A stretch of 64,000 nucleotides of DNA. Origin: Paraspadella gotoi (lineage: Eukaryota > Animalia > Chaetognatha). Shown here piece by piece: positions 5,401-63,340 of this stretch (positions are counted from its first letter, which is position 1; the number at the start of each line of letters is the position of its first letter). The translations under genes were made by a program, and so were the position numbers. A model generated the notes under the pieces. It saw only the letters and a program-made list of their open reading frames with translations. It did no database searches and was not told where the DNA came from. The stretch covers positions 23,231,497-23,295,496 of the forward strand of contig CM119269.1 in the NCBI GenBank assembly GCA_051294375.1. Reading direction: 5' to 3'.

Positions 5401-6075
5401 AATACTGACGACGACGATGAAGACGACGATGACGACGATGACGACGTTAACTACGACGATGATGATAACGATGATGACGACGACAACGATGACGATGACG
5501 ACCGGGACGACAGAGACGAGGACGACAACAATAAAGACATTGTAGTGGTAGTATTTCATACCCCGCTACTCGTCCGGGAATCAGCAGCACCTATGGCGCC
5601 GGAGGTAGCACGAGCTCCTCCCAACCCAAAGGACTCGGGTTCGCGCCCTGCTGATTCACACAAGTAAAATCGGGACGGGGCGTCTAACCCACCTGTAGTG
5701 TCGGACTACAGCCCGATCCGGCATCGTCTTCTACAACATCGATAAAGATGACAGTTATGACGATAATGACGACAACGATGAAAAAGCCGACCACGACAAT
5801 GAAGACGACGACGATGATAATGACGACAGCGACGACGACGACGACGACGACTACGAAGTCAGGATCCACGGAGAAAACTTTTCAACTCGAGGGAAAAAGT
5901 TGAGGGATTTTGAGGTCGAAAGGTGGAAGAAGAGAGAAGGGGGAAAGAGAGAGAGAGAGAGAGAATGGAATGGGTTTTCTTTGAAAAAAGATTCGTTTAA
6001 CCAGAAGAAACGAGACTTCATCTTCAGACAAACGAAAACATGGATTTTTGTTGTTGTTGTTGTTGTCGTTTCCCG

Positions 6076-23957: not shown

Positions 23958-24300
23958 AACAGACAAAACTTTCAAATGTCTAAAAGAAAAAAAAACAGTG
24001 TTAGGCCCTATTTTCCAAAGTTGCCCTTTTTCAGTTTAGGATTAATTGACTTTTTTAGTTTGGTTAAGTATTAAGAGAAAAGTCCAGGTTTTGCACTAAG
24101 GATTGTCCTACTGTATACCCAGAAATCAGGTTCACTTTAGTAATACTTAATAATGCTTATAGCGCGCGAAAAATTCAAAATTATGATGTAAATTATCATT
24201 TATTAGAATTCTAAATATAGTTTCTTTAGTAAATAACAATTTCAGTTTCTTGCTCCATATTCTTTATGTGTTGTTTGAACTTAACGATCTGCATTGAACA

Positions 24301-27300: not shown

Positions 27301-30300
27301 GTCATTTCCGACAAGAAAGATAAAATTATACAAAAAAATGGTCATCACAATCGAATTCTACAGACTACATTATACTAAAATGCTATGTACCTCAGTTGAT
27401 TTGTTATATTTTGTTATTTTTCAACGCTCTACTAGATTTAGAGAGCCTGTAAAATAGCGTCTACACAAAGTACAATTATTTTTTAAATATTTTGATGATA
27501 AGTGGGTCAAAAATAAGAAAAACTGTACAGGTTGTTATTACTACTATCTAGAAAGAAAGTATATGACATTTTTAATAAAAGATATCTACTCAAAAACTTA
27601 TTTGATTTAAAACAAATTAAAATGTTTCTAAATCTACATTGAATTTTTTTTAAGTAGCTTCCTTCTATTTTTTTGTAGGCCAAATCGTTTAGAAGTTACA
27701 GGCAAAAAAATATAGTTACTTCAAATAAAAAATGGCGAAAAAAATGTATTTAATTTTCTACCATTTTTGGTATTTAGTTATTTATATTTATTTTAAATAG
27801 AATTAATTATTTTTTATATTTTTTTAATTTGGTAATGCTAAAGGCCTTGCACCTCTTTCTGGTTTAAAAAAGTCTTATTATAGCTCTAAGAAAAGAGGGA
27901 AAGATGCGCAACATCAACATCGGGGCTGAGAAGAATTCTTTTAAAGATGTCAAAAAACATTTCACTGTCATACCTCAATTTGCTGTATAAGAACATACCC
28001 AGTCAAATGCAGTCAGTAGTCGATGCCAAAGAAGGGTATACCAAATATTGAGAATATTTACCCATGTTTTGTATACTCTTTATTAAATAAATGAATTATG
28101 TCATATACTTTTTTCCTAGATAGTATTTTATTAAATTTTATCAGTTTTTTTGTATTTTGACTGAAAAAAATATGATAATTTTTTAAACTTGTAATAATTG
28201 TTTAACTTTTCTTTTTCTATCAGAATACATTCAAACTTTTAAGATTAACAAAAAACTTATCATTGTATAGTACTATTATAGTTTAATAGCAACTATAACA
28301 GGCCTAAAACTTCAAGACAAAAGTATGGAAACTCTCCCATGCTTATTTTAATTTTGTACTTCTGATGCATGTAAGTTTTCAAAGTGATTAAAAAACTAAA
28401 AAGTATAAAACATATTCAAATTGACAACAATAGTCTGAGAGTATAGACAGGGAAAAATCAATTATGTTTCAGTAAAAAAATACAATAAAATAATTTGTTA
28501 AACTGAAATTTTATTTCACATTTGCAAAATTTATCTTTTACAGTAATTCATTTGTTGTTTTTCCAAAAATCAATAATCCATTTTTTTTTCCACAGAAAAG
28601 ATCCCCATTCTTCCTGTAGCCTTCAAGAATGGTCAAGCCGGTGCAACGTCCACTGCCTACCACTTCTCCGCCAATAATGCGTTTCAACCTGCGGCTATAA
28701 GAGGGTGGAGAAACAATTACCGTCATTCCTTCCCGCAGACCATTTGGTATAAATTCAAGAAGGCGAAGAGGATCGTCCGCTTTGGTTTTTTGGGTGGAAA
28801 GTACAACCAAAACACGAGTCCTCAAAAGATTGAATTTGTCGCTTCCAATGATTGTGGCGATTGGAAAGTTTTGGCCAAAGAGACGATGAAATTCACCAGA
28901 AATGGAGAAGAAAAAGTCTTTAATGTTGAAGACAAAAATATTGGATACTTTTTCTGCTACGGAATCAGAGTTTTGAAGACAAAACGGTCAAGATATGTCG
29001 ATTTAGAAAATATCAAAATGTGGGATAGCTTCTCCGATGGTAAGTAATTAGTCATTTTACCAAAAATAAAATATAGTGTACTTGATATTAGGAAAAGGTC
29101 ATGAAAAGATGGGGTTAGAAGTCTTTTTACTATACCGTCTGAAGAATTACTCATGAAATTGTTTTACTCTAATTGTGTTCTCATTTTGCTCAATGGTTGT
29201 GACGTTAAGACTATTTTAGCTAAAGACATGAACAAACTCAATGTAGCTATCAATGATGGCAAAAAAAGAAATTTGGATTTAACAGATGGGAAAGTATTCG
29301 TGACTTATGTAGCTTCTTTGGTTACCAGGACATTTTCACTATGTTTAACAAATGTAGAAAAAATTGTATTACAAAGATCTATTTGTCGAAAAACACGGTG
29401 CTCAATGGAATAATTCCTTTCTCTACTATTTAATGAATTACAGATCTGGTCAAAAAAGCATTTTATTTCGTTATTAGAAGGAAAACAATACTTTTTAGGA
29501 CTCAGTTAATTAATACATTATCGGACCGCTTCCTTGCTATGAGGGAGAGAGTCTGTGCAAATATGAAGGGTTTTATAATTTTCTTGATTTTGACGAATGT
29601 CATGGCATTTTACTGCAAAATGTCCCTTTTCATCCTTCACCAGACATTTTTAATGATGTTGCAGTCAGGCAAGTTTCCAGGCACCACGATCCCATTTTCC
29701 TCATGACATTTTTGGGTGACTTTGGCTTTGTATCCAGGAACTCAATCCTCTTTGAAAAGTCGCTTATTCACTGTTGAATGACTGGCAACAATTCTTATTC
29801 TTTCCATTTTTTTCTCAACTGGCTTGCAGAAGCCTTTCAGTCTTGAGGTCATCGTCCTTGCTCTGTGGACATGCAAGGCCGCCTGGTTCCAACAGCTCGT
29901 CCAAGGTCTCCAATTGGTTTGAATTGGTTGACAACTCTGCAGATGGCTGAAAGAGAAAAATGAAACCCAGCCTTCAAAAGATTAACAATTTCAGCTTTCT
30001 TTTTGGGGTTTAGCTGTTTTGAAGTTTCCATGGTAAAAAATCACAAAAAAATAAAAAAACAAAGATGAATAAAAAATAAAAAAAAGAAATTGTAAAAAAA
30101 AAAGTCAATCCTTTTTTTATTTTAAAATATTTAGCCTAAAAACCTCGTCATGGGCTCGAATGAAAGATATTTGTCTTGGCTTTCAAAGTTTTAATTAATA
30201 GGACGACAGACAAGCGAGATATTAGGGGGTTTAAAGTTTAAACATTTTGACCAGATATCTGTATTCTGTTTTGTGTTTCGTTTTTTTTTGTTTCGACCTA

Positions 30301-31312: not shown

Positions 31313-33170
31313 ACTTTCTTTCCCTCTCTCTCTTCCTTCCTCTCTCTTTCTGCTACCCTCTCTACTTAGGCGGAACAGGTAACAAACTAACAGAAGTCCG
31401 GTATAGATATTGTTAATTAAAGATGTTTATTGTTTTTATCGTTAAAATATAGTTAAACGCATGGATACTACTATTTTATATTTTCTATATACTATATAAT
31501 GTCATTCTTATAAAGCTTGAAAAGTTAGATAAAGGTTTTATTATTTTGGCCCACCTTACTCTCTACTTCTTACTTTGTTCCCCTCTTCCTCTCTCTCCCT
31601 CTCCTTCTCCCACTCTCCCTCCTCCCTCTTCTTCTCTCCTCCTCCATCTCTTCCTTCTCCCTCCTCCCTCTTCCCTCACCCTCTCTCTTCCCGCTCTCTC
31701 CCTCCCTTCTCTCCCTCTTTCTTTCTCTCCCGCCCTCCCTTTTCCTCCTCTCCCCTCTCCTCCTCTCTCTTCTCCTCCCTATCTCCCCTTTCTGCCCCTC
31801 TCTCCCTCCCTCTCTCCCTCTCTCTCTCTCCCTCTCTCTCCCCCTCTCCCTCCCTCTCTCCCTCCTCTCTTCCTCTCCTCTCTCCGCTCCCTCTCTCCCT
31901 CTTTCTTCTCCCTCCTCTCTCCCTCTCTCTCCCCCCCCTCTCCTCCCTCTCTTCCTCATCCCTCTCTCCCCCACTCTCTTTTCTCTCTCTTCTCCCTCTT
32001 CCTCCTTCCTTCCTCTCCTCAAATCTCCGACGACTTCAACACTTCTCCCCGCTCCCTCTCCCTTCCTCTCTCCACGCCCACCTCTTCTGCGCCACGCCCA
32101 CTCGCTGCTTCGCCCCCGTCCGTCTGGAGACGACCTGGCGATCCGCCATCACCGCCTGTTCATCGGCAAAGCCTGTCTCTGGCCGCCTGGCGTCTCTAGA
32201 AAATGTTGAGGACGTTTGGTTCCTGGAAAAGAAAATGGCGAAGGAGACAAACTTGGCTGGAATGTCTTTTTGGGTGAGTGAAGGTCAGACTTTACAATGT
32301 TTTTAAATTTATAGTACTATATTTCTAATACTTTGCTTTATCTTTTTTAATTTCAATTATCATTTGCTAGCAACTCTCTATAAAACAAAAAAAATAGTTC
32401 ATTATAACCAGACTTGTCTTCAAGATCACAAAAAGTACGTTTCATCTTCCTTTTTTTGTATAAATTTCAGGCAATACTTTTTACCAAACAAATTTTAAAA
32501 GATTAAAATCAAATGTGATTTTTAATTTTTAATTAGGCTCAAATAAATCTTATTAAAATTTAAAATAAAAAATAATCTATAGGCTATTGAGTTTCAGAAT
32601 TTCTATATTTTAAAAATATTTAACAAGAAAGGAAAAAAGAAAGTGTAATAAGCTAACTAAATTTAACTTAGTCAAGGTAGTGGTCTTTTCATACAATTGA
32701 AACATTCTTAGAGCGAGACTCGGAGAGAGTCTTGATTGAAAGATTGCAGGGACCTGCTATGTCATTATCTTGTAAGAGTGATGGAGGCCTTAAACCACCA
32801 AAGCCTGTCCATTGTCCAAAATGAGGGGCAAGATAGCCAATTTAATTTTTATAAGGGTTGTACCAATTTCATAATAATCTACCCCCAGGTGGCCGGTCGT
32901 AAAGCAGCTTGGAGCCCTCAGTGGGCGTGGCCAATCAACGCAACGACGGAAACGACGATAGATGTCGCTGCATTCGACATCATAGACAAAGACGTAGACA
33001 GCATTTCTGAGAAATGCCTCTTCGCTGAAGTGGGCGTGGTTGACTGGGAAAGAGATGAAGATAACAACGGCGACGTCAGCTGGAAAGCGGCCCCCTGCAG
33101 CGGCTGGCGCGGTTACATCTGCGAATTCTCTTCTGATGTCACTGAACAGTTGAAGGAGCTGTGGACTTGA
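24301..33170 (+). CDS. Type-II membrane protein with three C-type lectin-like domains (paralog 2)
   Basis: Exons 24301-24346, 24433-24561 (TM ILLLFVILLFILT), 24626-24787, 24858-25004, 25081-25488, 30551-30713, 30794-30885, 31020-31120, about 32023-32273 (damaged acceptor/frameshift), 32889-33170. Intron positions and phases match paralog 1 through CTLD2 (GPPG|, GGYLATVDS, WRWFSNQRK, ICE.PNP). Confidence 0.85.
25799..26140 (+). CDS. Single-exon complete C-type lectin domain (cassette or nested-gene exon)
   Basis: AG|..G|GTCAGT, phase 1-1; KFDEARKVC..GAVIAMP..QIWLGIVD..FTFIDGS..YYW..C..W..C..KFVCQ. Confidence 0.85.
26432..27431. mobile_element. Foldback-type non-autonomous hAT element
   Basis: TAGGGCGTTG...CAACGCTCTA termini, 8-bp TSD CTAGATTT (26424-26431/27432-27439), imperfect inverted arms of about 400 bp. 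Confidence 0.85.
27544..28123. mobile_element. Tc1/mariner-type MITE (copy 1)
   Basis: TIR CTATCTAG..AAAGTATATGACA, flanking TA; homologous to 45918-46475. Confidence 0.85.
28596..29039 (+). CDS. F5/8 type C (discoidin/galactose-binding-like) domain exon
   Basis: AG|..G|GTAAGT, phase 1-1; ATSTAYHFSANNAF..GW..FPQTIWYKFKKAKRIVRFGF..SPQKIEFVASNDCGDWKVL..FFCYGIRV. Confidence 0.75.
29441..30261 (-). mobile_element. Internally deleted Tc1-like transposon
   Basis: TA-flanked imperfect TIRs CAGAT(AT)CTGGTCAAAA; ORF 30031-29849 resembles a transposase N-terminal HTH (KKAEIVNLLKAG..SLSAICRVV..GTRRP) and ends in stops. Confidence 0.7.
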
Positions 33171-33964: not shown

Positions 33965-36900
33965 ATCTATTCTATATAATATCTTCTCTCTACTAACTCC
34001 ATCTTTCTGATCTGTTCCTTCTCTCTCTCTCTCTCTCTCTCTCTCTGCTCTCGTCTCTCTCTCTCTCTCTCTCCTCCGTCTTCTCTCTCTCCCCTCTCTA
34101 CTCCTCTCTCTCGTCCTCTCTCTCTCCCTCGGCGTGGTATTTCCATTTGAAGCGGACCGGGCCCTCGGTTCCCACACAACGAGTCACGCGGCCAGCTCTA
34201 TGCTTCCGCCGTCTTCTGTCTCTCTCTCTCTTTCTCATCCACACTCTTTCAACACACCCAACTCTTTGTTCAAGCGTCGACTCTCGGTTCCTCTCTCCTC
34301 TCTCTCTCTCCGTCTCCTCTCTCTATCTCTCTCTCTTCTTCCTCATCTCATCATCGCCCCCTCTGTCCAAGATACCTTTAAGGCCGAAAAGTAATGGACG
34401 GGAGAATGAATGAGAACAGAGCGAGAGAGAGAGATAGAGCGAGAGCAGAGGAGGAGGAGAGAAACAAGAAAACGAGGAGATAGGAGAGGGGAGACGGAGA
34501 GAGTGACCGTCACTGTGGTTCTTCCAATTCAGTACGCGCCATATACATCCTCGGATTCCCGCTACCAACGAAGTAAATCTTAGCAATACAACGCCACTTC
34601 CCGACATCTACTCGGGATAGGCATACAAACAACATGTGCAAACAAAGGCGACTGCCCAAGCGAACTTCCATATCGTCATTTGTTAGCCGGTCGTTTTTAT
34701 AAAAAATTTAGATAATGTCAAACTAGATAAAAATACGTGATTCTTTAAGGAATCAAGTATTCGTTTGCCTAACAAGTATTTTCTAACAACAGAAGAACAA
34801 AAGAGATGAATGTTGTTATTGAAGCTCATGTTGCTCGTGAACGTAGACGTATTCTCATCCTTCTCCTCTGTTCAGTCTTTACCGTCCACAATTCCGGGCG
34901 CGTAGGCTGCTGCTCTCAGAGACTGCCTGCGCCGCGGCGCGTGTCTGCTGCGTCGCTGGGGCGAGCGTGTCGTCCAGGCGTCTGCGCGGCGCTCCGGGTC
35001 TCTCGTCTGCTCCGGCTCTCGCTCTCCAGTCTCTCGCTCTGTCTTCTGTCTCCTCTCTCGTCTCTCTCTTTCTTCTTTCTCTCCGTCATCTTCTGCCTGT
35101 CTCTTGCTCGATATTCCAATCAAATACGTGAAGAAAAGTTCCTGATTTCTAATAAATTATTTTGTGTTAGTAAACATCAACAGGTCGGAACGAACTGTCG
35201 TTGACAGGGGATGAAGCTTCTGTCAGGGTCATTTCCTTGTCACCTTTAAGGCTGCATATTTATTTTTGGTATGAAATTAAAATTAATAACCAACGTATCG
35301 TTGCCCCTGACTTTGTCGACAGTCTTGGCACTTCTTTAAGGGTTCCGCGTAGCAGAACGTGTGCAATGTTGAAACAAAAACGAACTCTTGTCCACTGATT
35401 GTTCGCAAGCGTTGTTACATACAAGATATTGAGATTAACTTTCTACCAACAACAACAAATTAGGGGCCGAACCGAAGGATTTGTTAAAAACATCTCCACG
35501 CGGTTTCGTAATGATAAAATGGACCATTGGCCCACTTTTAGCCAAAAAAATTATGTCCAGTGTTTTGTCCATTTTTACTGTACAGACTGTCTGATGCTTT
35601 GACATGCAGGGGGGAAAGGAGACATTGAGAAAAACAAGATTTAAGCTTTCGGAAATCCGGTTACTTTCTTAATCGTTCTTTTACCTGCTGGGTAAATTTA
35701 TTAGCTTAGAATCATTTATAGTTGTGCCTATGAATTACAGTTCTTAAAGTTAACAAGTCGAAAACATGTGTTGCACGTTGTACTTCAGTCTTGTATCTAT
35801 AATTTGTTAAAAAACAAAAATAAATCAAAATGGTTGAAATTAAACGAAATTATAGTCCATTGAGATAAGCTTTTTAGGACACCTATAAATTTAACTCAGA
35901 TAAAAAAAATTTTCTGGTGGTGTCAGCGTGCGGTACGGGAAGCACCAAATAATTTTTTAAAGACGTCTTTTAATTTGATGGACTTTTTTGGTGATTGCGA
36001 TTATTTTTGATAAAGGAGGAATATTTCTCACAGTCATTTATTAGTTGTAAAAAGATGAGGGTCATACTGACCCTTGATTAATAGAAAAAAGAAACCCGCT
36101 TCCTTTAATTCCACTGGAAAGGCATGCAGGCACTTGGTTTTTTTTTCTGCACAAATCGAGACAGATTTTGGCGGGGAAATTTGTTGTCCACGGCAAATCT
36201 GTCGCATTACTCAATTGCTAGTCAACCAAAAATTGAAAGCAGCGAATCATCTGCGTACCACCCGTTGATTTGTCTTTCTTATACATGGATTTTAAATATT
36301 TCTTTGTATTTAGCTCAATTAATCGTAGTGAGAGCAAAAAATAGGAAAAGGGGAAACAAGCAAGGAAATGGGAGAGAAATGAAAGAGAGGGTGGAAAGGC
36401 CAGATAAAAAAAGGTAGGAAAATGGGGACAAATAGTGAACATATTGTACAGGTAGAGAAGAAGAGGGGAGAAAATGGAAAGAAAAGGGAAAAAAGGGAAT
36501 GAATCGAAAATGAGAAAAAAAGAGGTAGGGAAAGTGGCAGTAGTGAGGAAAAAGGTAGGGGCCAAGAACAACGGATAAGTGCCACTAGCGGTGAGAAGTA
36601 AGGAGGAATAGTAGGAAGGAAGGAAAATTAAAGTTAAGCAGAAGAAAAGAGGCAAAGAAAAATCTTATAGGAAAGCGTATGCAAAGGAAAAAATTGTATC
36701 AGAGTAATGTGGCGTCGTTGATCCTGAAAATGCTTGTTGGTGTAAGTGTGGATTTCGCGACGCACAGGCGGCTCCCGGCCGTCGAGGTAGAAAGGAGACA
36801 GAGCGATCTTTATAAGGATTTCGATTCTTTAAAAGACCATCTGTACGCATAAGAATTCAAGCATTGCACTTTCTTTCTAAATTAAGCAGCTTAAGAGATT

Positions 36901-39900
36901 AGGTTTTGAACAAGCATTGAAGAAATCATGTCTTCTACCGGTCGTTCGTTTTGTAACTCATAGAAATTTACCGCTGGGAAATTCTAAGTGATAAGAAGGG
37001 AGATAACTGTGAGACTACCGGGTGTTTTTTAAAATGAAGAAAAGCTTCGTACTAAACGCCAAATTGAGATGAAGAAATATTGTAAGATTATTGAATGTTT
37101 CTTAGATCTTCGCGGTTGTCTAAAAGACACTGATTTGTAGTGCGAAACGCTTAAGCCTTCATCACTTTACAGAGACAATGACATAGAGCAGTTTCGCCTG
37201 CAAGCTTTCAATCAGACTCCCTTCAGCAGTACTGCGTATTGATTGCTAGTTCATAATAATAATAAGTGAGGATAATGGAATACGGATGAGTATATGAATA
37301 AGTAATAATACATACAATCATAATAAGTTAATAATAATGAATGCAATAACTAATAATAATTAATAAAAACCGAAAATTCTCTGCTGTTAAACTAATAAGT
37401 CATCTTTTTCTATAATAGTTTTTTAGAATGATTCTTTGCTAACTAACGGCCAAGTACGTTTACAAAAGAGCGCCGCCATGTTAAGATCTTAATTTAAAAA
37501 ATGTAGTAGGTTATAAAGGTATCGATTACAGGTTAGAGCTCAGGAAGAAGTTAGTTTTTAAGGGAATTTTGATTAACAGATTTGGTTAACAGTTAGTAGT
37601 TTGGATAGGAGATTTTTGATAGGGATAGGTTGGTAAGGGTTGATTGTTTAGGGTTAAAAAGAGTTGTGATTTGGATAAGGCGTTTAGGTTAAGGAATTAT
37701 GGTTTGCTTAGGAAAGTCTAGGAATTGGATTAATATATGTTAAGATAAGGGTGGAGGAATGTAGGTGCTTATCCTATTTTTATCTGTTCGTTTCTGCCTT
37801 GTGTGTTTCGTGGATTCCATTGGGCTGATTTCGAGACGGTTCTGTGCGCCTAGGGGAGGGCCCGACCGTCACACTCGACTCTCCTCTCGTGAAGTTTGCT
37901 CTCTCTCCTGTCTTCTCTCTCTCGTCGTCTCTCCTGTCGTCCTTGCCCTCTCTGGTCTCCGTGCTAATGTGTTCTGTCGTCCTCGTCTCGGCTCTTCGTC
38001 TCCTCGGTCTCCCTCCGGTCGTGGCGTCGATTCATAACGTGTGATTTTTGCAAATGCGACCGCCCGAATTAGGATTTAGTATTAGGCCTGGATCAGACGT
38101 TGTAGAAGATTTTGGGATGGAACAACAGCAGGAACGCTCCTTGGGCTTGCAGGAGGGACGAGAGGGAGAGAGATGGAGCTGGAGGGGTAGAGAGAGACGA
38201 GAGAGGGTAGGAGCAGAGGAGAGAGGAAGAGTCAGGCGTTAGAGCAGGAGGAGCGAGAGAGAGAGGCGTGTGTGGTGTCGATTTGCGCCTTTAATCTGCT
38301 CGTGTTTATTGTGTTTGCTTGCCGTCTGCCCTACCCTGGAGCTAAATCTTTTGTGTCTATTCTCTGAAGGTCACCCAGCGGAAGTGGTCGGGCTGACGGG
38401 AATCACTTTGTTGATGAGGGTTTTGCATCTATGCACTACATCAGTCGCGCTGCATGGTCATCCACTCTGATCACTCGGTCTCTAGGTTTAGCTGCGCATT
38501 GTAGCGACTACGATAGATCATCGAACTCCATGGCTGCACGCTATCGACATCGCCATGGATAGTGACGCATATTCAACATCGACCGTCCATGATGGTGCGT
38601 TGTGGACCATGGCGGCTCAGCGTATGCAAGACGAACCCTCAACGGAACATGCGATTCTCGGAGTAGGGTCCATCAGATTAGCTCACTTGGAGCCATCATC
38701 AGAAGAGTTTTGATCCTAGTGGCATAGAGCCGCATCAGTAGACGATAATCCACTTGACGTCATCGGCTGATCATCACTCATCCATGCTCATGCAGGCATG
38801 CGATACTTGATCATCATCATATCAGTCATCTGCATAGGATCGATCTATGGCATCTTGCATCCGCAGGTATTGCGCAGCCGGCGTCTGTGAGACTTATAAG
38901 TGTGGCGCTTCTGGGTTTTGCCGATCCTCATGTAATGTCAGGAGTTTATCCTTTGAGATTTCAATGGTCGCGTGATTTCCTGGTGACATGTGTAAGTTTT
39001 TCGTTAGTTTAAAGTCTATGTAGAGTATGGCGAATGAGATCGTTTTTCCAGCCAGGAGGTTACTCGGGTGGTTAGTGCGTGGGGGGGTGTGGTGTGTTGC
39101 GGTTGTTGGTCGGGACGTTGGTGGTGTGTTGGGTGTGGGGTGGTTGTTTTGTTGTTTTGTGTGGGGTTTTGTTGGTGGTTTGTGGTTGTGTGGTGGTTGG
39201 CTGTTTGGTGGGGGGGGTGGGGGGTGTGAGGGGGGTGGGGTTTGGGTTGTTTTGTGGTGGGGTGGAGTTGTGTAGTTGTTGCGGTGTGGTGGATGTGCTT
39301 GGGCCGCAGCTGTTTAGGGTGGCCGTCGGCTGCCGCGGTGGGGCATGGCACTGTGCTTGCCGCTAGCTGGTTTTCTTCGCACTAGCCGACGCCTCCGCTT
39401 CCTCTTCAGAGTGAGTTGTGACCGTTGCCGTAACCCGAGCAGAGGCGCGTGCAGGCCGGAGCACTGGGGCCGGGTGGGGGCGGGGGAGGTGGCGGGTGGA
39501 GTAACGCTATGGAGGGTCAACGTTTAGGTGGGGGCCTGGCTCGTGCGTTCCGTGGGGTAGACCGAGTGCTTGTCCGCCACTCTCACTCATCCACCGGGGC
39601 GCGCAGAGGATCGTGCGCGCGCGGGCTGTGCCGGGAGAAACTGAGGCCATCGGTGGCGTCTCATTGCGGATAGAAGCTCGGAGCAGGCGTCTGCGCGCCA
39701 TGTATGAGCGCCCCGTTGGCGGCAGCAGTCGACCACGTACAGGCTTTCTGGGCTTCGTAATTGGACAACTCCATCCCATATCGCGTGTACGTCCGAGGCG
39801 GTCTACGCCTGCGTGTCTGTCCTGCGGCGAAGAGCCGTCTGAGGACGAGCTGGGCCGGTAGAGACCGCCTTGGGCGGCGCTGGACAAAGAACAGACCTCA

Positions 39901-42900
39901 AGTCCTGTGGTTCAACAGCCAGGACGTTCCACATGTTTGCTGAGGGCGTAATGAGGAATTACGGATAGTTGGTCCAATCGGTTCTGGTTTCTTACGTGCG
40001 GCCTTGCCCTGCGAGCAGGGCCACCTTAGGCGCCTTATCGCAGCAGGTATGCTAGATCGTATGGATGATACGTTTACCTCTGGTAGTCTGCCGCTTACTT
40101 GAGTGTCGCGGCAGTGTCCCACGTTTCACAATCTGGGTTATGTTTACTAAGATCACCAGCCTAGATTCGTTTTCTGACTGCGAACTTTTGGATCAACAGC
40201 CCTTTTTGCTTTTTAAAACCTAAGATTCCGTCTTTTATTCTGCATACTCGTGCATACCGGTGCGCACGTGAGTCTCTACTTTAAGGCTTTTCTTCTGGTA
40301 CGAAGAGTACAGTCGTATAACTTTTTCGTTGTTAGCACGCGTTCCTCTGTCTCAAGCTGTCCCTTTCTTCAATTGCGCCTTATTTCCAGAGAAAGTTAAA
40401 GAATTAGATTGAAATTAAAGAAGTTATTTGTGATAAGGGTTAGAGGTTAAGAAGTTAGGTTATAAATTACTCTTAATACTAATTAAAAGTATTGCTAGTA
40501 AACCGCTACGAAATATGTATGTAAAATGAGATTGAAGATCAATATTAAAAATTAAAGCACACATTTGTAATATCCCGGGTGCTGCCGGGTGCGGCGGGGG
40601 CTGGGTCTGGTGCTTGTATTGTTGTATACAAGGGTAAAATGTAAAAATGTAAAAAAATGTAGAAAAGGAGACAAGGAAATGACAATCCAATAAGGAAAAA
40701 GTCTACAGCAATGTTTTGNNNNNNNNNNNNNNNNNNNNNNNNNGAGAGAGAGAGAGAAAGAGAGATAGAGAGAGAGAGAGAGTGACGTCACTGTGTGTCT
40801 TCAATTCAGTACGCGCCATATAACATCTCGGATTCCGCCTACCAACAAGTAAATCTTACAAACGCCATTCGACATACGATGCCATACAACATGTGGCAAA
40901 CAAAAGATGCCAGCGAACCTTTCATCGTATTTTTAACCTTTTTTAAAAAATTTAGATAATTCAACTAAATAAAAATATTCTTTAAACAATATCTTTCTAA
41001 AATATTTTAACAACAGAAGAAAAAGAGAATGAATTTGTTATTGAACTCAATGTTGCGTGAACAATTTATCTCTCTCTCTCTTTCTCACTCACTCTCTCTC
41101 TCTCTCTCTNNNNNNNNNNNNNNNNNNNNNNNNNNNNNNNNNNNNNNNNNNNNNNNNNNNNNNNNNNNNNNNNNNNNNNNNNNNNNNNNNNNNNNNNNNN
41201 NNNNNNNNNNNNNNNNNNNNNNNNNNNNNNNNNNNNNNNNNNNNNNNNNNNNNNNNNNNNNNNNNNNNNNNNNNNNNNNNNNNNNNNNNNNNNNNNNNNN
41301 TCTCTCTCTCTTTCTTTCTCTCTCTCTCTCTGTCTCTCTCATTTCAATGCAAATTACGTGAAAGAAAATTCCTGATTTCTAATAAATTATTTTTGTGTTA
41401 GTAAAATCAAAGTCGGACGACTGTGTTAAGGGGATGAATTCTTCAGGGTCATTTTTACTTTACTGCTATTATTTATTGTATGAAATTAATTAATTAAACA
41501 AACTATCTTGCCCCTGACTTTGGACAGTCTTTGGTCCTTTTAAGGTTCCGCGTACAAACGTTGCATTTAGGAAAAAAACGGACTCTTTCCACTATTGCTT
41601 CCAATGTCCATTGTTACTTACAATATGATTAAACTTTCTACCACAACACAAAATAGACCGAACGAAGGCATTGTTAAAACATCTCCACGCGTTTCTAATG
41701 ATAAAAATAGGACCATTTTGCCACTTTAGCCAAAAAAATTATGTCCATTTTTGTCCATTTTACTTACGACTTCTGAATTTGAATGCAAGGAAAGTGAGAA
41801 AAAATTTTTATCTTTTGGAAAATCCAGTTCTTTTCTTATCTTCTTTACCTCTGGTAAATTTTATTAGGCTTAAATCATTTATAGTCTTGCCTATGAATTA
41901 ATTTTAAAGTTAACAAGGTCAAAAAAGTTGCAGTTTCAGTCTTTATCATAATTTTGTTAAACAAAAATTAAAATCAAATTGGTGAAATTAAACAGAAAAT
42001 ATAGCCCTATTGAATTAAGCTTTAACACCTATAAAATTTATTCAAAAAACTTTTTCTGGTTTAGCACAAATAATTTTTAAAGACGTCTTTTATAAATTTG
42101 TGGACTTTTGTGACTTGCCATTTTATTTTTTGATAAAGCAGAAATATTTTTCAACTCATTTTCATAGTTTTAAAAGATGAGGTAACATACTGCACCTTTG
42201 ATTTATATAAAAAAAAACCGCTTCCTTTTAATCCACTAGGATAAGCATCAAGGACTTGTTTTTTCTTCAAAATCGACAGCATTTTGCGAAATTTTCCGCA
42301 AAATCTGTCGATTTACTTAAAATTTGCTAGGCAACCCAAAATTGAAAGAAAAATCATGCGCTACTTTGATTTTCTTTCTTATAATGCAATTTTAAATATT
42401 TCTTATTGATTTTGCCTCAATGTAACGTATGAGTGAGAGAAAATAGGAAAGGGGAAAACAAGAAAAGGCAGAAGGGAGAGAATGAAGAAGAGGTGAAATG
42501 GCACCAAAAAAAAGCCAGAGCAAATGCGGAGAAAAAATAATGATGTGAATACAATGTGTAAGGCTAAGAAAAGACGGGAAAAAATGGAAAGAAAAAAAAG
42601 GGAGAAAAAAGGAATGAAATGAAAATGAGGAAAAAAAAGGTGAGGAAAGTGCTATGCAGTGAACCGAAAAAGGTAGGGCGCCAAAAAAACGGTAAGTGAC
42701 AGCGTGAGAAGTAAAGGAGGAAAGAGGAAGAGGAAAATAAAGTAATGAGAAGAAAGAAGAGGCAAAGAAAAATTATCAGGAAAGCGTATCATCAAAGGAA
42801 AAAATTGATCATTATAAGTGGCGTCTTACCTTAAAATATTGTTGTGTAAGTGTAAAAGACGATGCAGGATTCTTATATAGGAATTCTCGATTCTTTAAAA

Positions 42901-43307
42901 ATATCTATCTGTACCATAAAATTCAAGGCATACTTTTTTTCTAAAATATAAGCAGTTACATAGATTAAGATTGACAAGCATGAAGAAATCATGTCTTACC
43001 GTGGTTTTTTAACTCATAGAAATTTACCTGGGAAGCTTCTAAATGATAAGAAGGAAGGATAACTTTGAGACACCCGTTTTTTTTTTTTTTTTTAAATGAA
43101 AGGAAAGCTTCGCTTAACTAACAATGAGATCAAGGAATATGCGTAATTATTGAAGGTTCAGATTTACGTTGCTCTAAAAAGACGACTTGATTGATATGCG
43201 AAACCTTAAGCCTCCATCACTTTTACAAGACAATGACATAGCAGTTCCCTGCAAGCTTTCAATCAAGACTCCCTCACAGTCTCGTTTATTCAATAATAAT
43301 AATAATG

Positions 43308-43386
<79 letters not shown>

Positions 43387-43819
43387 CCGAAAATTTCTCT
43401 GCTTTAACTAATAATATCTTTTTTATAATAGTTTTTTATTTTCTAGGCAATATTTACAAAAAGCGCCCCATTTTAATCTAAATTTAAAATTAGTTAGTTT
43501 TTTTAAGTTTAAAGATTCGATTAAAGGTTAGAGTCAAGAGTTAGTTTAGGGATTTGATTAACGATTTGGTTAAAGTTTAGTATTTGGGATAGAGATTTTG
43601 GATAGGGATTAGGTTAAGGGTTATGTTTAGGTTAAAAAGTTAGTGATTTGGATAGGGTTTAGGTTAAGGATTATGGTTAGGTTAAAAGGTTAGAGAATTG
43701 GATTATATGTTAAGGATAAGGGTGAGGAATTAGGTTATACCTTTTTTATTTTCTTTTCTTTGTTTCTGATCCCATTGGGCTGATTCAACGGTTCTCGTCC
43801 CTGGAGGCCGACGTCACAC

Positions 43820-43892
<73 letters not shown>

Positions 43893-44441: not shown

Positions 44442-44711
44442 TGTAGTCGGGCATTGCCTAGTTTCACCCCTCTTTCAGTTGTGACCCGGTGGCTCATTGA
44501 GTAAAGCCATCAGCTCATGACCACTAGGTACTGGGTTCAATCCCAATCCGGTACCTACCCTGCGGGAAGAGTGAGGACGGCCGTAAGCCGCCTTGGGGGC
44601 GTGGCAAACCCTCAAGCCTGGTTCCAAGCCCAGGACCCGTTCCATGTTTGCTAGAGGGGGTTATAGAAATTACGGATAGTCATCTTCTGCCCACTTAGCG
44701 CCTTATCCACA
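44442..44711 (+). mobile_element. Solo LTR of tRNA-promoter/twister TRIM family
   Basis: TG..CA, TSD ATGC (44438-44441/44712-44715), A-box TGGCTCATTGAG, B-box GGTTCAATCCC, twister-like motif downstream. Confidence 0.8.
44562..44640 (+). ncRNA. Type-P5 twister-like ribozyme
   Basis: P5 GCGGG/CCCGU; GA-GGA pairs with UCC of L4 UUCCAAGC; U^AA at 44584; GCC; P3 UUGGGGG/CCCUCAA; P4 CCUGG/CCAGG. Confidence 0.75.
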
Positions 44712-46908: not shown

Positions 46909-47555
46909 TATGGTGGACTAAAAATCCACCAACCGTTCATCAGCGGCCATTGGTGCCGGAGGCAAGTCATTCGCCTCCCAACCCAAAGGTCCGGGGTTCT
47001 AGCCCGGTGGTTAAGAGGGACGGGGCGCTTAACCCGCCTGTAACATGGTGTTACAGCCTGATCCGAAGCTCAGGGACTGCTTATATTGAACGGTTCTGTC
47101 ATTAACACTTATCAATAATTACTGTCTCTTCATTGGTGAGCCCGACTTCCGAACACAACAGCAACAACAACACTTTCAGGCGACAGGCCTCAACCTGGCA
47201 ATGCACTTTCCGCCCACAACACATCAGGCGACATGCCTCTACTTGGTGACAAACTTTCCATCAACAACAACAATTCACTGAAGAGACGCAACAGACTTCT
47301 CCCTACGGGAGGGGGGGATGTATGGTCGACTAAAAATCCACCAACCATTCATCAGCGGCCATTGGTGCCGGAGGCAAGTCATTCGCCTCCCAACCCAAAG
47401 GTCCGGGGTTCTAGCCCGGTGGTCGTCTGGCAGTTAAGAGGGACGGGGCGCTTAACCCGCCTGTAACATGGTGTTACAGCCTGATCCGAAGCTCAGGGAC
47501 TGCTTATATTGAACGGTTCTGTCATTAACACTTATCAATAATTACTGTCTCTTCA
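46909..47555 (+). mobile_element. TRIM (miniature LTR retrotransposon) A with tRNA-like promoter and twister in each LTR
   Basis: LTR1 46909-47132 (lacks initial TG, 11-nt deletion), PBS TGGTGAGCCCGAC 47134-47146, PPT GGGAGGGGGGGA, LTR2 47319-47555 (TG..CA), TSD TCAG. Confidence 0.88.
47430..47503 (+). ncRNA. Type-P5 twister-like ribozyme (LTR2 of TRIM A; partial copy 47011-47080 in LTR1)
   Basis: P5 GCAGUU/GACUGC; GA-CGG pairs with CCG of L4 UCCGAAGC; U^AA at 47453; P3 UGUAAC/GUUACA; P4 CCUGA/UCAGG. Confidence 0.78.
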
Positions 47556-48569: not shown

Positions 48570-49924
48570 TAACAAAAACTCAAATTCGATTTTTTTTTCA
48601 GATTCATACGAAATTTAAAAAAAAAATGTTTGAAAAAGTGCGGGGGGCCTTTGTTGGAAAAAACTGCCACAGGAACTAAACTGCTACTCGACAAAACCAA
48701 AAAAAAACAAAACCCAAAAAAAAAAGCTCAAAAGTGCCAAAAAACAAAACGAACATAAGAAAAACAACTACCGCTCCCTTCTCAAAAAACATTCCTAAAA
48801 TGTATAGGTAAGTGTCAATTTTATAACTTCATACAACAAATATGAAAATTATATATTCATTTAATGAATATGCAATTTTTCCCTGCTGACTTTGGAGAGG
48901 CTATAGGTTTAGGCCTCCCCCCTCTTATAAGATGATAACATAGCATATCATAGCAGGACCTTCTTGTAAGAAGATAACATAGAATATCATTGCAGGACCC
49001 TTTTCTCACAGTCTTGTTGAAGAACTGCTGGAGTAAAGAGCTTCCCTATTAATGAAGTGGTGTAATTTTTTTATAGTCTTAAAAATGTTTAAATTGACCA
49101 TAAAAGGAACATCCGTATGAGCTTCAAACAAAAAAGGACAACAAGCCTTGATAATTACTGCAAGGATTCCATCGTGATAAAAGGTCTCCCTTTGGGCCGC
49201 AGTAAGGGGCAGTGTCCATGGGAGCGACCCGAGTGAGCAGCAGTTTAAAATTCTTAAAAATTGGTCCTAAGGAAAACTTGTTTTATAGCTTTGTGGTGTT
49301 ACCCTTTCAGATATTCCCCCGGGAGCAATAAATAATTTAATTTTCATGGTTAAACCGAGTACCCTTAGGGCCCATACCTTCCCCTAGGAGTCACCCATCC
49401 AGCTGCCCCCCTCCCAGGGCGGTGCCTTTTTTGAGCGACGTTATATCTCAATTACTGAAAGCGTCTTTTGTTTTTGTCGGCAACGACGTCGTTTCCTGAA
49501 TCGGCTGCCGCCATCCTCTGACTTAATCTCGCGTTTTCTCATTTTCCAGCGAACACATTATGGCGATTTCTTGCATCATCTGTCTTATCGCTGTCGTCGT
49601 TACCACCTGGACACTGCTCATCGTTATGGAGGTCAGAGGAGAGGGTGGAAGGGGGAAAGAGGGAGGAAAGAGGGAGGAAAAAGAAAAGGAAGAAGGAAAG
49701 GAGTGAAAAGGGAAAGGGGAAAAAAAGAAAATGAGATAAAAGGAAAGTCAGGGCAAAAAAGAATGACAAAGGAAAAGGGAAAAGAGGAAGGATTAAAAGA
49801 AATGAGTTAAAAGGAAAGGGAAGGAAAAAAGTAAAAAGGGGGGAAAAAGGAAAAGGGAGAAAAAAAAGGAAAAGAAGAATAAAAGAAATAGAGAAATTGT
49901 TCAATCATTCATTCATTCGTTATT

Positions 49925-50550
49925 TCCCTCATTCATTCACTACAGGACATTTAATAATTTCCCTTTCATTCACTACAGGACATTTAATAATTTCCCTTTC
50001 ATTCACTACAGGACATTTAATAATTTCCCTTTCATTCATTACATGACATTTAATAATTTCCCTTTCATTCACTACAGGACATTTAATAATTTCCCTCATT
50101 CATTCGCTACAGGACATTTAATAATTTCCCTTTCATTTGCTACAGGACATTTAATAATTTCCCTCATTCATTCACTACAGGACATTTAATAATTTCCCTT
50201 TCATTCGCTACAGGACATTTAATAATTTCCCTTTCATTCACTACAGGACATTTAATAATTTCCCATTCATTCACTACAGAACATTTAATAATTTCCCTTT
50301 CATTCACTACAGGATATTTAATAATTTCCCTCATTCATTCGCTACAGGACATTTAATAATTTCCCTCATTCATTCGCTACAGGACATTTAATAATTTCCC
50401 TTTCATTTGCTACAGGACATTTAATAATTTCCCTTTCATTCGCTACAGGACATTTAATAATTTCCCTTTCCTTCACTACAGGACATTTAATAATTTCTCT
50501 CATTCATTCACTACAGGACATTTAATAATTTCCCTTTCATTCACTACAGG
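49925..50550. repeat. 33-35-bp minisatellite (TTCATTCACTACAGGACATTTAATAATTTCCCT), about 18 copies
   Basis: Direct tandem units visible. Confidence 0.9.
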
Positions 50551-58026: not shown

Positions 58027-61000
58027 TCAAGGCAATCCCGCAGGATAATGCTGAATATAAGGCTTGGGCACTTTTTGTACCTCCTCCGCCGGTCGTGACC
58101 CAAGCTTTAACAATCTGGCCTGTTCCTTCTCAAGCTGAGTCAGCTTGTCCCTCTCGGCTCTGACCCGCTCCTGTTGCCGCTTCAGTCCTAGTAGCAACTC
58201 CTCCCTCTGTGTCTGAGCTTGCTTCAGTTCAGCCCTCATCTGCTGGTAGTGCACTTCCAGCTCCTCTTCTTCCTGGCTACACTTGATCATCTCGTTGTTC
58301 AGGTGCTGCGAGTTCTGCTTGTGCACGTCCTGGAGCAGGGCGCCCATTTTGTTCAGCTCCTGTTCTTCCTTGCGACAAACTCGCTCCACTTCCTTCACAG
58401 CGGCCGTCAGTTCCTTGGAGGAGAGAGAGAGAGAGAGGTGATTGGTTAAGATAGGATTCTTCATCATCATCATAATTATCATCATCATTTTTATTATCAT
58501 CATCATCATCATCATCATCATCATTATCATCATCATCAACTATAAATCAATTACATTATTTCGGCTTTATTTTCTCAGAAAGCCGGAATTTAATTTTAAT
58601 CTTAATATTTATAGAAGAGTTGAAATGGATTCAACAACGATTTTCTTGTTCAAGCCTTCATCATGCTTGAACAAGAGCCGAAACATTTCCGTTATTATTA
58701 TTGTTTCAAATAAATCATTGTTGTCTGGTGGTCCTATTGTAGATTCGAACCCGAGATTAACGATCCACTCGGATCCATGCTAACTGATTAGCCATCTCAG
58801 ATTGATATATTTCTTATTTTGAAACTTCCTTATTATCAATTAAAATCATTTTAAAACTAGACAAATGAACAACCTATTTTTCAAGCAAATCAGCTGACTC
58901 AAGAGAAACTAATTCTTTAGTTCTGCTTGGAAAACAATTTCACTTAATCACAATTTAGTAACTCAACTGGAACCCATTATCGTTACTAATTTATTACTTA
59001 TTAATTATTTATGATGTTTGCCATTTTACTTGTTATTAATTTAATAATTAATTGATTGATTTATTTTGCTGTTTAGTCATATAGATATTGTAATTGCTTG
59101 ATGATAAAGCAATGGAATATCTATATGCTTTGATTATTTTATTAAGGTTGCTTTTTATTCATTAACCAAGCAAGTTGGTTTAAAAGCTTTTAATTCAAAG
59201 CTTGTAAACTTTGCAATCATTCCGAGATCCAAGACGCTCGTCAACTTCGTTGGATGACGCGCCACCTCAAAGTGAATTCAGGCCGCGCCATCTACACTAT
59301 CACCACAGATGGATTAAAGCTGTTTCTTTCACAGCGCCTCAGTGGCTCAGTGGACTAATGCACCATCCCAATGTGCGTCCCTGGTTCGAGCCCTGAGGTT
59401 GTCATGTAGAAAGTGGGATGGACCGGGTAACCCGCCTGTAGGCATGGGCCTACTGCCAGATCCAAAGCTCTGGACTACATGAACATGCTGTCTCGCTGTC
59501 GCCACGAGGTGACACCGCTGCGGGTGTGGCGCCCTGTAAAACCAGCCTCTTCAATGGTGAGCCCGACGTGATCCCGAACACGCAACCCGGCTGATAATAC
59601 TCCTCTGCCCTTGATGTGGTTTGAGCTACACAGCTGCACTCAAAGCAGGGCCACCAGAATGAAGAGAGGTTCAGCGGAGAGACATGCGCTTCATCCCCCT
59701 GCTTCGTACTCTCATATGCGAGAGTCCTGGGGGGGCTGTCTGGTGGTCCTATCACCACAGATGGATTAAAGCTGTTTTCTTTCACAGCGCCTCAGTGGCT
59801 CAGTGGACTAATGCACCATCCCAATGTGCGTCCCTGGTTCGAGCCCTGAGGTTGTCATGTAGAAAGTGGGATGGACGGCGGGTAACCCGCCTGTAGGCAT
59901 GGGCCTACTGCCAGATCCAAAGCTCTGGACTACATGAACATGCTGTCTCGCTGTCGCCACGAGTGACACCACCGCTGCGGTGTGGCGCCCTGTAAAACTC
60001 AGCCCTCTCAGTTGAATCCATTTCAAACTCGTCTCTAAATCTCAACCACAACGAAACAAAAGGATTATAATATCTAATCTTAATATTTACAGTATATAAG
60101 GTGATAGACAGACGCGGGTCTATTACCCCCTCCTTCTCATTCACCTCCTCTTCATCCTCCTCCCAGGGATTCGGGGCCGCGTTCACGAGATTCAGTTCAC
60201 CTTTCTCTCTTCTCCTACTCGTCTCTCTCCCTTTTTTTACCCTCATTTTTGTCTTCATATAGATTTTCTTTCCATCAATATATTAGTTTCCCACATTCTC
60301 GTCACTTTACTTCCGGTTAGGATACCTTTTCAGAGATTTAACCTAAACCTGTGTTTAAATTTAAAACTCAATCAATTACCCTAATCTAAAATTTTAACAT
60401 TATCTTAAACTCAAAACCTGAATACTTATCCATAATTTTTAACCCTAACCCCTAAACATAAACTTCTGTCCCTAACCCTAATTCCTAATCATAATTGCTA
60501 ACCTCATCCCTAAGAAAAATTATAAACCTAATTAATTAATCCCTAACCTTAACTTTAACCTAGTTCCCAATTAAAGATAAAATGGGTCGTTCTTGGAAAT
60601 TAATGCTTTTCTTCTCACCTTCTCCACAGTCTCTCCTTTTTCCACAGCCCTCATCACGTGATTGACATGGTCGTCATGTTCCCTAAACTTGGCGTGGAGA
60701 TCCCTGCGTTTGAAATCCTCCAAGGCCCTGGCTTCCTTGGCATCTCTCTCTTTTCGTCTTCCAGCCAACTCGCTTGTCCGCGATTTGAGGCGTCGCTTTG
60801 AGTGAAGTTCGATCTCCGTCTCTAGGGCGACCTCTTTGAAGCGGACCTTGGGAAGGGTAATACATCATTTCATTTACGGTTATTAGTTACTATTTATAAT
60901 TAATACTAATATATTATTGTAAAAATGATTTAAAATTATCTTAAAGACTTTTTTCTTTGGCACAACCAAAATTAAAAGATTTTTTTTTAATTAAAAATCC

Positions 61001-61873
61001 TATCATATCAGTTTGAATAAATATTTTTCATTATTTCGACACGTTAGGCAAAAACATAGTTTTAGAGTAACTAACTTAATTCCAAATTCAAGGTGAAATG
61101 GGTCATTCTGGGAAAAGAGAGCCCTACTTTTGTCTCTAATTCTTCTTCTCTTATTTTTCTTCTTTGTTTTTGATTGTCATCTGCTTTTTGTCTAATGTCC
61201 CTTTTGTCCAAATCGTGCTCTCGTTCGCGCGAAGTTAATGTGTCCTTAAAGATAAAATTATGTTTATAAAATTGGTTAATAGAAAAGATATCCATTCAAT
61301 TACTTGTCCCTGACTTTTAACAGGCAAACAAGATAAATATAAAGCAGGACCCTGCAAGCTTTTAATCAAGACAGTCTCACAGTCTCGTTTATTCACTCCC
61401 AGATTACCTGGCTTCCATATCAATAAAGTAGTATCATATTTCAAACAATGTTTCAATTGTATAAAAGAATCACTCCCTCATGAAATAGAGAATCCACACG
61501 TCTTTTGATTTAATCCTCTCTGTTATTTATGCAAAAAAGTTAATTCCTAAGTTTAAAGGGAGACTAATGCCAAATTTAAAATTCATGGAAAGAAAACTCT
61601 TAGGCTTAGCTTGTCTGCTTTTAACTGTCGCCTTCTCTCTTTCTTTCTCTTTATTTTTTGCTCTCTTTCTTTCTATTTCTTTTTTGCTCTCTCTCTCTCA
61701 CTCTCTCTCTAACTCTCTCTACCTCTCTCTACCTCTCTCTTTCTCTCTCTCTCTCTCTCCTTCTCTCTCTCCCTCTCTCTCTCTCTTTCTCCTCTTCACC
61801 TGCAATGTTTTTGCTTCTTTTTCCCGTCGCTTGCCTGTTCTATCTTCTCTTGTGTCTCTCTATCTCACTCACT

Positions 61874-61905
<32 letters not shown>

Positions 61906-63340
61906 CTCTTTACCTGCAATGTCTTTGCTTCTTTTTCCAGTTTCCGCTTTGCTCTTTCAATCTTCTCTGCTTTCTTTCCAAAAGCTTCGGTCTCAGATTC
62001 CAGTTTGGATCGAACCTGCAATGTCATTCTATGTCATTCAATCATCAATGTTGTAATTATTCTATCAAAATATCACAAAATCATCAATGACTCAATTAAA
62101 CTACTAAAAGATATAGAAAGGCATTGTCAAAGCGAAAATATGCCCAATAACAAAACAGAACATAAATCAATGGGACTTGAAATAATTTTCTAATATATGC
62201 AAATGAGATTGAGGAATTCAATCTCATTTAGTAATATTCTAAGAATCTGTCTTTTACAATTTATCAAATTAAAAAACAAAATTTAAATTATCCTTTTTTC
62301 AACTCCATTGTCTAAATAAAAAAAATGGCACCTGTGCTGACTCTCGGGCGCGGTGTACCTCGTCGTCTTTGAAGGTGGCGCTCACAGCGTCCTCTTGTTG
62401 TCGCTTTTTTAAAACCTAAAAACAAAATGACAAAGTAAAAAAAAAAGTCTGAAAGAGCCAATTCCCCCAACTAATTCTACAGCTTCATTTTTACATCATT
62501 CTAGCCACATTCTCTCTACATTCTCACCTCTGAGCAAAGAGCAATGGCCAGTTTCCCAACTCTTTCTGCAGCCTCATTCTCTTTTTCTTCTAGCTGCATT
62601 CTCTCTATATTCTCACCTCTGAGCAAAGAGCAATGGCCAGTTCTCCCAACTCTTTCTGCAGCCTCATTCTCTTTTATTCTAGCTGCATTCTCTCTATATT
62701 CTCACCTCTGAGCAAAGAGCAATGGCCAGTTCTCCCAACTCTTTCTGCAGCCTCATTCTCTTTTTATTCTAGCTGCATTCTCTCTACATTCTCACCTCTG
62801 AGCAAAGAGCAATGGCCAGTTCTCCCAACTCTTTCTGCAGCCTCATTCTCTTTTATTCTAGCTTCATTTCTCTTACATTCTCACCTCTGAGCAAAGAGCA
62901 ATGGCACGTTCTCCCAACTCTTTCTGCAGCCTCATTCTCTTTTTATTCTAGCTGCATTCTCTCTACATTCTCACCTCTGAGCAAAGAGCAATGGCCAGTT
63001 CTCCCAACTCTTTCTGCAGCCTCATTCTCTTTTTATTCTAGCTGCATTCTCTCATACATCTCACCTCTGAGCAAAGAGCAATGGCCAGTTCTCCCAACTC
63101 TTTCTGAAGCCTCATTCTCTTTTATTCTAGCTTCATCTCTCTACATTCTCACCTCTGAGCAAAGAGCAATGGGCCAGTTCTCCCAACTCTTTCTGCAGCC
63201 TCATTCTCTCTGTCTCCTTCTTCCTCAGTTTTGCTTCAAAATCTTCAACGAGTCTTTCGACTTCGATTCTTTTCATTTGCATCTCTTCTTCTTTTCCTCT
63301 GTAGCGACGACTTAAGTCCGTCTCATTGAGAAGAGCTTTT
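58027..63340 (-). CDS. Uncharacterised coiled-coil protein, partial (5' end probably outside the window)
   Basis: GT-AG exons 63340-63153, 62415-62332, 62015-61914, 61244-61128, 60846-60619, 58413-(58027) encode E/K/R/Q-rich heptads. The 63340 exon needs one base removed to splice in phase. Confidence 0.7.
59403..59481 (+). ncRNA. Type-P5 twister-like ribozyme (LTR1 of TRIM B)
   Basis: P5 CAUGUAG/CUACAUG; GA-UGG pairs with CCA of L4 UCCAAAGC; U^AA at 59428; P3 GUAGGC/GCCUAC; P4 CCAGA/UCUGG. Confidence 0.78.
59856..59936 (+). ncRNA. Type-P5 twister-like ribozyme (LTR2 of TRIM B)
   Basis: Same as the LTR1 copy except the linker is ACGGCGGG; U^AA at 59883. Confidence 0.75.
60090..60335 (-). 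repeat. Second copy of the 57596 repeat body, lacking the tRNA portion
   Basis: Shares ttctcattcacctcctcttcatcctcctc..ggattcggggccgcgttcac..ctttacttccggttaggataccttttcagag. Confidence 0.8.
62455..63208. repeat. 88-90-bp minisatellite made of an exon end plus its splice donor, about 8 copies
   Basis: ctcacctctgagcaaagagcaatgg at 62523, 62612, 62701, 62791, 62880, 62970, 63060 and 63148. Confidence 0.9.

Follow-up and report, generated by a model that had tools for sequence, protein, structure and literature searches.

The 64,000-nucleotide stretch of the genome of the chaetognath Paraspadella gotoi analyzed here (GenBank assembly GCA_051294375.1, contig CM119269.1, positions 23,231,497 to 23,295,496 of the forward strand; below, the window, numbered from its first letter) contains a small non-coding retrotransposon, element B, in which each long terminal repeat (LTR) carries a tRNA-like module followed by a fold of the type-P5 twister ribozyme. 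Judged by its sequence, B is a Helenus-type terminal-repeat retrotransposon in miniature (TRIM) under the definition given by Kojima (PMC10886601), and the new feature is the type-P5 twister fold in each of its LTRs, which combines traits of Helenus with those of retrozymes. That these LTRs contain a conserved twister fold can be stated with high confidence, and active cleavage by the twister is likely. Our overall interpretation, to which we assign a probability of about 0.6, is that B is a non-autonomous Helenus-type TRIM that would act as an animal LTR retrozyme, its RNA being freed by the ribozymes, circularized and copied by a Gypsy element.

The fold in the 5' LTR of B comprises helices P5 (59402-09/59475-82), P2 (59413-16/59431-33) and P4 (59456-60/59469-73), a P3 helix, the pseudoknot T1 (59419-21/59462-64), the conserved G59417 and a palindromic P1 (59422-27), with the predicted cut between U59428 and A59429; in the 3' LTR, whose copy carries a 2-nt insertion in P1, the cut is predicted after U59883. 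The conserved twister core (UAA, GA, GC and loop L4) is present along with T1, T2 and P4, and the core positions agree with the Rfam Twister-P5 consensus (RF02684). At the level of the fold, the motif occupies the same site in both LTRs of B and of a second full element in the window, family A, and it recurs in a solo LTR, family C. A descriptor written after the motif had been seen matched the window five times, each time within an LTR of one of these three families; block-shuffled windows gave 0.09 matches per window (9 of 100 shuffles with one match). The folding z of the isolated ribozymes is weak (-0.3 to -2.3), the pseudoknots lying outside the fold model.

When the three families were aligned, 12 of the 23 pairs changed on both sides (all five P5 pairs, between A and B, two each in T1, P4 and P3, and one in P2), and 65 of 68 cells paired, two of the three unpaired cells being accounted for by the P5 of C, which is one column out of register. 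Shuffled controls gave a mean of 4.3 such pairs, with 0 of 500 reaching 12, and slid partners gave at most two. The UAA, the GA, the GC and the L4 AAGC are invariant across A, B and C. A sequence-only reading of this DNA had proposed that selection maintains the ribozyme fold and had quoted T1 and P4 triplets from three subfamilies; the triplets are exact, at 47057/47480 (A), 59456/59911 (B) and 44617 (C), and the excess of double-sided changes, together with the invariant catalytic positions, supports the proposal that selection keeps the twister fold. The motif assigned to a third subfamily proved to be carried by a solo LTR (44442-44711, TSD ATGC; TSD, target-site duplication).

Element B itself has the two short LTRs, primer-binding site (PBS), polypurine tract (PPT), TSD and lack of a coding region that characterize a TRIM (Table 1). 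Its module order and LTR content had been described correctly, and the LTR repeat (59297-59547 against 59749-60004) is 96.5% identical over 258 columns; the 5' boundary, which had been placed at 59297, must be moved, since B starts at 58724 with the TSD GTTG and 59297 is the second CTAT copy of a nested insertion. In the full alignment of the LTR pair, 264 of 264 aligned columns are identical and eight indels of 1-3 nt are found, part of which may be assembly errors; the insertion of B is therefore very young. The nested 559-bp insertion sits about 36 nt upstream of the tRNA-like module of B, has inverted ends of 7 bp and box A/B-like motifs at its end and includes a very high-depth repeat near 59110-59182.

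Contigs from four sequencing runs (X1, X5, X6 and X9) were aligned to the window, and the results given here come from the part of the alignment tables that was consulted. In X1, 1631 contigs aligned to the window, 665 of them at 99% or more, and one contig joins 58720 to 60012 as host sequence carrying a single GTTG; this sequence could stem from a paralogous repeat of the host rather than from an allele. One X6 contig across the internal region of B has a depth of 2277, against roughly 15-25 for most other X6 contigs listed, which suggests a high-copy family with many near-identical copies, contig depth not being the same as copy number. The ribozyme form of the 5' LTR occurs with zero differences in a deep X9 contig; X6 and X9 have almost no coverage in the bin with the 3' LTR form, unlike X1 and X5. 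Coverage in X9, which may be an RNA run, is not taken as a sign of expression.

A and B start with TA or TC directly after the TSD, and a TG precedes the 3' LTR, after the PPT. An alternative reading in which these elements start with TG and have a TSD of 2 bp was rejected, as it fits B only and is contradicted by A and by contig loose ends that start at 59739 (at least seven contigs in X5 and at least six in X6). The TA/TC starts (46909, 58724 and 59739), despite the TG after the PPT, suggest unusual left-end processing by the integrase; the LTR of family C, unlike those of A and B, starts with TG.

The assignment to Helenus follows from the tRNA-like boxes A and B of the LTRs, the TSDs GTTG, TCAG and ATGC, and the PBS TGGTGAGCCCGACGTGAT (59555-59572), which matches the 3' end of A. 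mellifera tRNA-Trp (Fig. S2 of Kojima, PMC10886601) at 17 of 18 positions, the single mismatch that had been claimed. Because the 13-nt Trp PBS of family A has the same mismatch, the tRNA-Trp of the host may differ from that of the bee at this position. A Trp PBS and a 4-bp TSD are typical of the CsRn1 clade of Gypsy elements (PMC2582038), and we infer that a CsRn1-like Gypsy element would be the partner supplying reverse transcriptase (RT) and integrase. The tRNA-like module of B folds with a z of -4.0 and is probably a promoter for RNA polymerase III (Pol III); ARAGORN detected no tRNA anywhere in the window, nor did relaxing its threshold yield one in B.

Table 1. Element B and related copies in the window
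Feature	Position	Strand	Remarks
Element B	58724-60010	+	non-coding TRIM, about 724 bp
Left TSD of B, GTTG	58720-58723	+	repeated at 60011-60014
B 5' LTR, first 14 nt	58724-58737	+	begins TCTGG, not TG; identical to 3' LTR start at 59739
Nested 559-bp insertion, solo-LTR-like	58738-59296	-	TGTAGAT/ATCTACA ends, CTAT duplication
B 5' LTR, remainder	59301-59553	+	CA at end; from alignment to 3' LTR
tRNA-like module, 5' LTR	59336-59399	+	7-bp acceptor-like stem, box A 59343, box B 59383
Twister-like fold, type P5, 5' LTR	59402-59482	+	predicted cut U59428/A59429
PBS for tRNA-Trp	59555-59572	+	TGGTGAGCCCGACGTGAT
Internal region, 185 bp, non-coding	59554-59738	+	no Pfam match in overlapping frames
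PPT	59720-59735	+	G7 at end, then 3-nt spacer; from sequence
B 3' LTR, 272 bp	59739-60010	+	second tRNA-like module 59789-59852, twister 59855-59937
Right TSD of B, GTTG	60011-60014	+	matches 58720-58723
Family A, full element	46909-47555	+	LTRs 46909-47132 and 47321-47555; TSD TCAG
Family C, solo LTR	44442-44711	+	TG..CA ends, TSD ATGC, tRNA-like module, twister
Copy D, A-related LTR, 3'-truncated	5541-5721	+	tRNA-like module, damaged twister; model R1 21.2 bits
Copy E, decayed twister-like fold in older repeat	32766-32836	+	model R1 27.1 bits

A distinctive aspect of these twisters is their P1, a 6-nt palindrome with zero loop. No hairpin can form from it, only a duplex with a second copy, and P1 is therefore probably formed between copies. 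The 6-mer self-pairs in five of five copy types (A to E) at -6.3 to -10.7 kcal/mol, against a background in which 4% of 1954 6-mers reach -6 kcal/mol; the five types are related and hence not independent. Copies D and E, their palindromic P1 included, were found by model R1, which has no P1 pairs, and cofolding of two copies produced an inter-strand P1 for both B and C. In Penelope-like elements, hammerheads whose short loops are palindromic likely undergo dimeric cleavage (PMC6765202). The presence of the zero-loop palindrome in every copy type suggests cutting as a two-copy dimer; that the twister would be an obligate dimer is a real possibility at somewhat less than even odds. No report of a palindromic twister dimer was found in the literature searched.

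These features lead us to propose a model in which the tRNA-like module in the 5' LTR would initiate Pol III transcription and both twisters would cut at U/A, after U59428 and U59883, releasing a monomer of 455 nt for B as assembled (452 nt without three extra bases in the 3' LTR; 423 nt for A). The same length and cut sites had been given before, and the U of UAA indeed lies at both positions. P1 would form by pairing between two LTR copies, so that the first cut would depend on the second LTR having arrived. The P5 permutation would keep the monomer ends paired, with a predicted pairing probability of about 0.95 for B and about 0.8 for A, so that an RtcB-type ligase would meet a 5'-OH next to a 2',3'-cyclic phosphate. 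Because the cut monomer has no terminal (R) repeat, the template is proposed to be circular: reverse transcription primed by tRNA-Trp would run round the circle with no strand transfer, carried out by the CsRn1-like Gypsy partner, whose integrase would insert the cDNA with a 4-bp TSD. We consider a circular RNA intermediate somewhat more probable than its absence, and the predicted circle of B is more stable than its shuffles (z -4.2, 60 shuffles). For plant LTR retrozymes, a circle-as-template model has likewise been argued from the missing R repeat (PMC4918200), and animal non-LTR retrozymes are ligated by RtcB in vitro (PMC7229834).

The main rival to this model holds that the twister only forms 3' ends: linear Pol III transcripts would be cut in the 3' LTR, leaving an R repeat of about 90 nt that spans the tRNA-like module to the cut site, and ordinary strand transfer would follow. 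The weak P1 and bulged P2 could slow the first cut, and a T-run stands just after the tRNA-like module in many of the published animal Helenus LTRs that were inspected; A, B and C are without one there, so the ribozyme could replace it. The two LTR copies have the same sequence, however, with nothing obvious to protect the first, both would be activated if P1 formed between copies, and T4 runs were not significantly depleted (P 0.12 for A); this explanation is unlikely. It is more doubtful still that the fold serves a non-catalytic role, either in RNA protection or in RNA dimerization and packaging by way of the palindrome, in the manner of a retroviral kissing loop. The GC-rich palindrome is conserved and the Rfam score lies below threshold, but the unpaired catalytic UAA and GA and both pseudoknots are invariant or covarying in A, B and C, and a plain packaging signal would need none of this. 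Least probable of all is that the tRNA-plus-twister block is a decaying passenger derived from a short interspersed element (SINE) or the 5' end of an RTE element inserted in an ancestral LTR: Kojima proposes that Helenus arose by SINE insertion (PMC10886601), P3 resembles that of RTE-linked twisters (PMC8501958) and copies D and E have decayed, but RTE twisters are of type P1 whereas those described here are P5-permuted, and the pairings compensate even though the flanks have diverged to chance level.

Several results weigh against the retrozyme interpretation. Rfam made no call of any kind in the window at the gathering threshold and no twister call in B or A at an E-value of 10; on C, its Twister-P5 model, which offers no room for the P3 hairpin, reached 16.3 bits (E 0.27), the gathering score being 37.6. 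In A, B and C, P2 consists of 3 bp and a bulge, the canonical P2 having 4 bp, and model R1 gives a true phage twister 23 bits, no better than chance loci. The covariation comes from three rows only, with the structure read off the same sequences, and is suggestive rather than a formal test. Two-copy cofolding gave no inter-strand P1 for A, and P1-less twisters cleave inefficiently (PMC8501958). The predicted circle of A is not unusually stable (z -0.9, 60 shuffles), and a Pfam domain scan covering 118 of the 147 candidate reading frames of the window gave 0 matches to RT or integrase domains. Transcript, cleavage and circle are all predicted, none of them observed.

Among known systems, Helenus/TRIMp3 elements (PMC10886601) are also short animal TRIMs with a box A/box B module in the LTRs, a PBS, a PPT, a 4-bp TSD and a Gypsy-type primer, and a tRNA-Trp PBS is already known in gall-wasp families; for the published families, too, Pol III transcription is a prediction. 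The elements described here differ in the twister that follows the tRNA-like module and, for A and B, in starting with TA/TC rather than TG. The main text of PMC10886601 does not contain the word "twister" and has "ribozyme" once, in a reference; in its Data S1, an exact search, from which line breaks can hide matches, gave no twister L4 motif, and no twister was seen by eye in the animal LTRs. A "taacccgcc" match in Ajax (Data S1) was rejected as a twister, no P4/L4 being seen. In the same data set (PMC10886601), Helenus-2_SyJa-LTR and Helenus-2_SyUm-LTR show by eye a complete type-III hammerhead, unreported there, after the tRNA-like module. It has a GUC site, a core of CUGAUGA and GAAAC, three helices and a 12-bp loop-loop complement, and the two families, the only Helenus families there with a Trp PBS, are close relatives and so count as one case. 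The hammerhead was identified by eye against the hammerhead consensus.

Plant LTR retrozymes (PMC4918200) also have a ribozyme in each LTR, in matching positions, along with a PBS, a PPT and a 4-bp TSD, and they too have no open reading frame and a monomer without an R repeat. They differ in their type-III hammerhead, tRNA-Met PBS, plant hosts and RNAs of 600-1000 nt, and their promoter is probably one for Pol II (PMC12029980), whereas the present elements have an animal host, a twister, a tRNA-Trp PBS, a tRNA-like promoter and RNAs predicted at about 420-455 nt. As interpreted here, B works like an LTR retrozyme yet falls outside the definition, having neither a type-III hammerhead nor a tRNA-Met PBS; in a 2026 preprint, LTR retrozymes are still assigned primarily to plants and to type-III hammerheads (10.64898/2026.07.22.740005). 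With RF02684 and the RTE twisters of S. mansoni (PMC8501958), the folds share the UAA cut site, GA, T1, T2 and P4/L4, and their P3 is similar to that of the S. mansoni twisters (Table 1 of that paper); they differ in scoring below threshold, in having P3 and P5 both present, in the bulged P2 and the zero-loop palindromic P1, and in lying in an LTR rather than at the 5' end of a long interspersed element. Animal non-LTR retrozymes and the SINE-like repeats of Schistosoma (PMC7229834, PMC6765202) resemble the proposed system in their small ribozyme-cut RNAs, RtcB circles and dimeric cleavage, and the latter also in the use of Pol III, but they are tandem, have type-I hammerheads and are without LTR, PBS and PPT. 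The literature searched, which did not extend to Roth 2014 or Repbase, yielded no description of an LTR element that carries a twister; earlier lists of twisters may therefore contain such motifs without comment.

The related copies vary in their state of preservation. The 5' LTR of A (46909-47132) is without 11 nt, among them the greater part of the P5 5' strand, a loss that may impair this copy, and the box A of this family, which has a twister in both LTRs, deviates at one position from the Helenus motif. Family C was considered as a SINE, which its TG..CA ends and ATGC TSD rule out. A tRNA-like head was looked for in copy E and none was seen; the repeat family to which E belongs (32714-32836) has a palindromic P1 and is represented by fragments at 43206-43284, 61328-61387 and 37151-37222, with others at 21268-21318, 18510-18561 and 48893-48945. 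Similarity between families outside the ribozyme is at or near chance level. The earlier description of B as largely unlike A stands where the internal region is concerned (118 of 300 shuffles as high) and also for the 3' part of the LTR (40 of 300); it fails for the twister, which is similar above chance (0 of 300), and to a lesser degree for the upstream part of the LTR, which is weakly related (score 27, shuffle maximum 22). The sequence-only reading contained neither the true 5' end of B nor its link to Helenus as a published class, and it did not mention how unusual P1 and P2 are.

Scans for the twister pattern gave two loci in viral contigs, both of them one phage twister, and 41 loci in metagenome contigs, of which 40 were checked by Rfam and one was the same phage twister, with no animal relatives. 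This type-P5 twister (L001:1969-2032, L002 and L024) passes Rfam and has the same 3-nt P2 strand as the present folds, in the context UAA-CCC-GC, without a bulge.

The window is rich in AT and microsatellites and contains, by Pfam, a cluster of C-type lectin exons with an F5/8-like domain (21600-26200 and 28577-29044) and a disintegrin exon (10936-11154). Further features are an old duplication of about 2.9 kb (35061-37933 against 41301-43867, 74% identical) and two tandem arrays (49922-50550 and 62457-63209). Element B lies about 300 bp from a coiled-coil-like exon on the opposite strand (58030-58416, minus strand), for which a homolog search returned one match at 70% identity, and its insertion site is likely an intron. 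A repeat resembling a miniature inverted-repeat transposable element encloses B, with inverted arms of about 30 bp (58607-58635 and 60011-60040) that are 90% identical.

The elements of the window join a tRNA-like module to a ribozyme-in-both-LTRs design for which the literature searched offered descriptions from plant elements only, and there the ribozyme is a different one. If the retrozyme interpretation is true, eukaryotic twister ribozymes would gain a role in LTR retrotransposition, LTR retrozymes would reach from plants into animals, and Helenus and retrozymes, two classes described separately, would become joined. We advance only tentatively the wider proposal that animals have LTR retrozymes of their own, namely Pol III-transcribed, Trp-primed TRIMs with an exchangeable ribozyme slot (a twister in the present element, a hammerhead in Helenus of gall wasps); in the present element, a dimeric twister would cut only when both LTRs are transcribed and would release a circular RNA as template. 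With its young age and its length of about 724 bp, B offers a test case for the circle-as-template model of LTR reverse transcription, and a natural two-copy twister is predicted.
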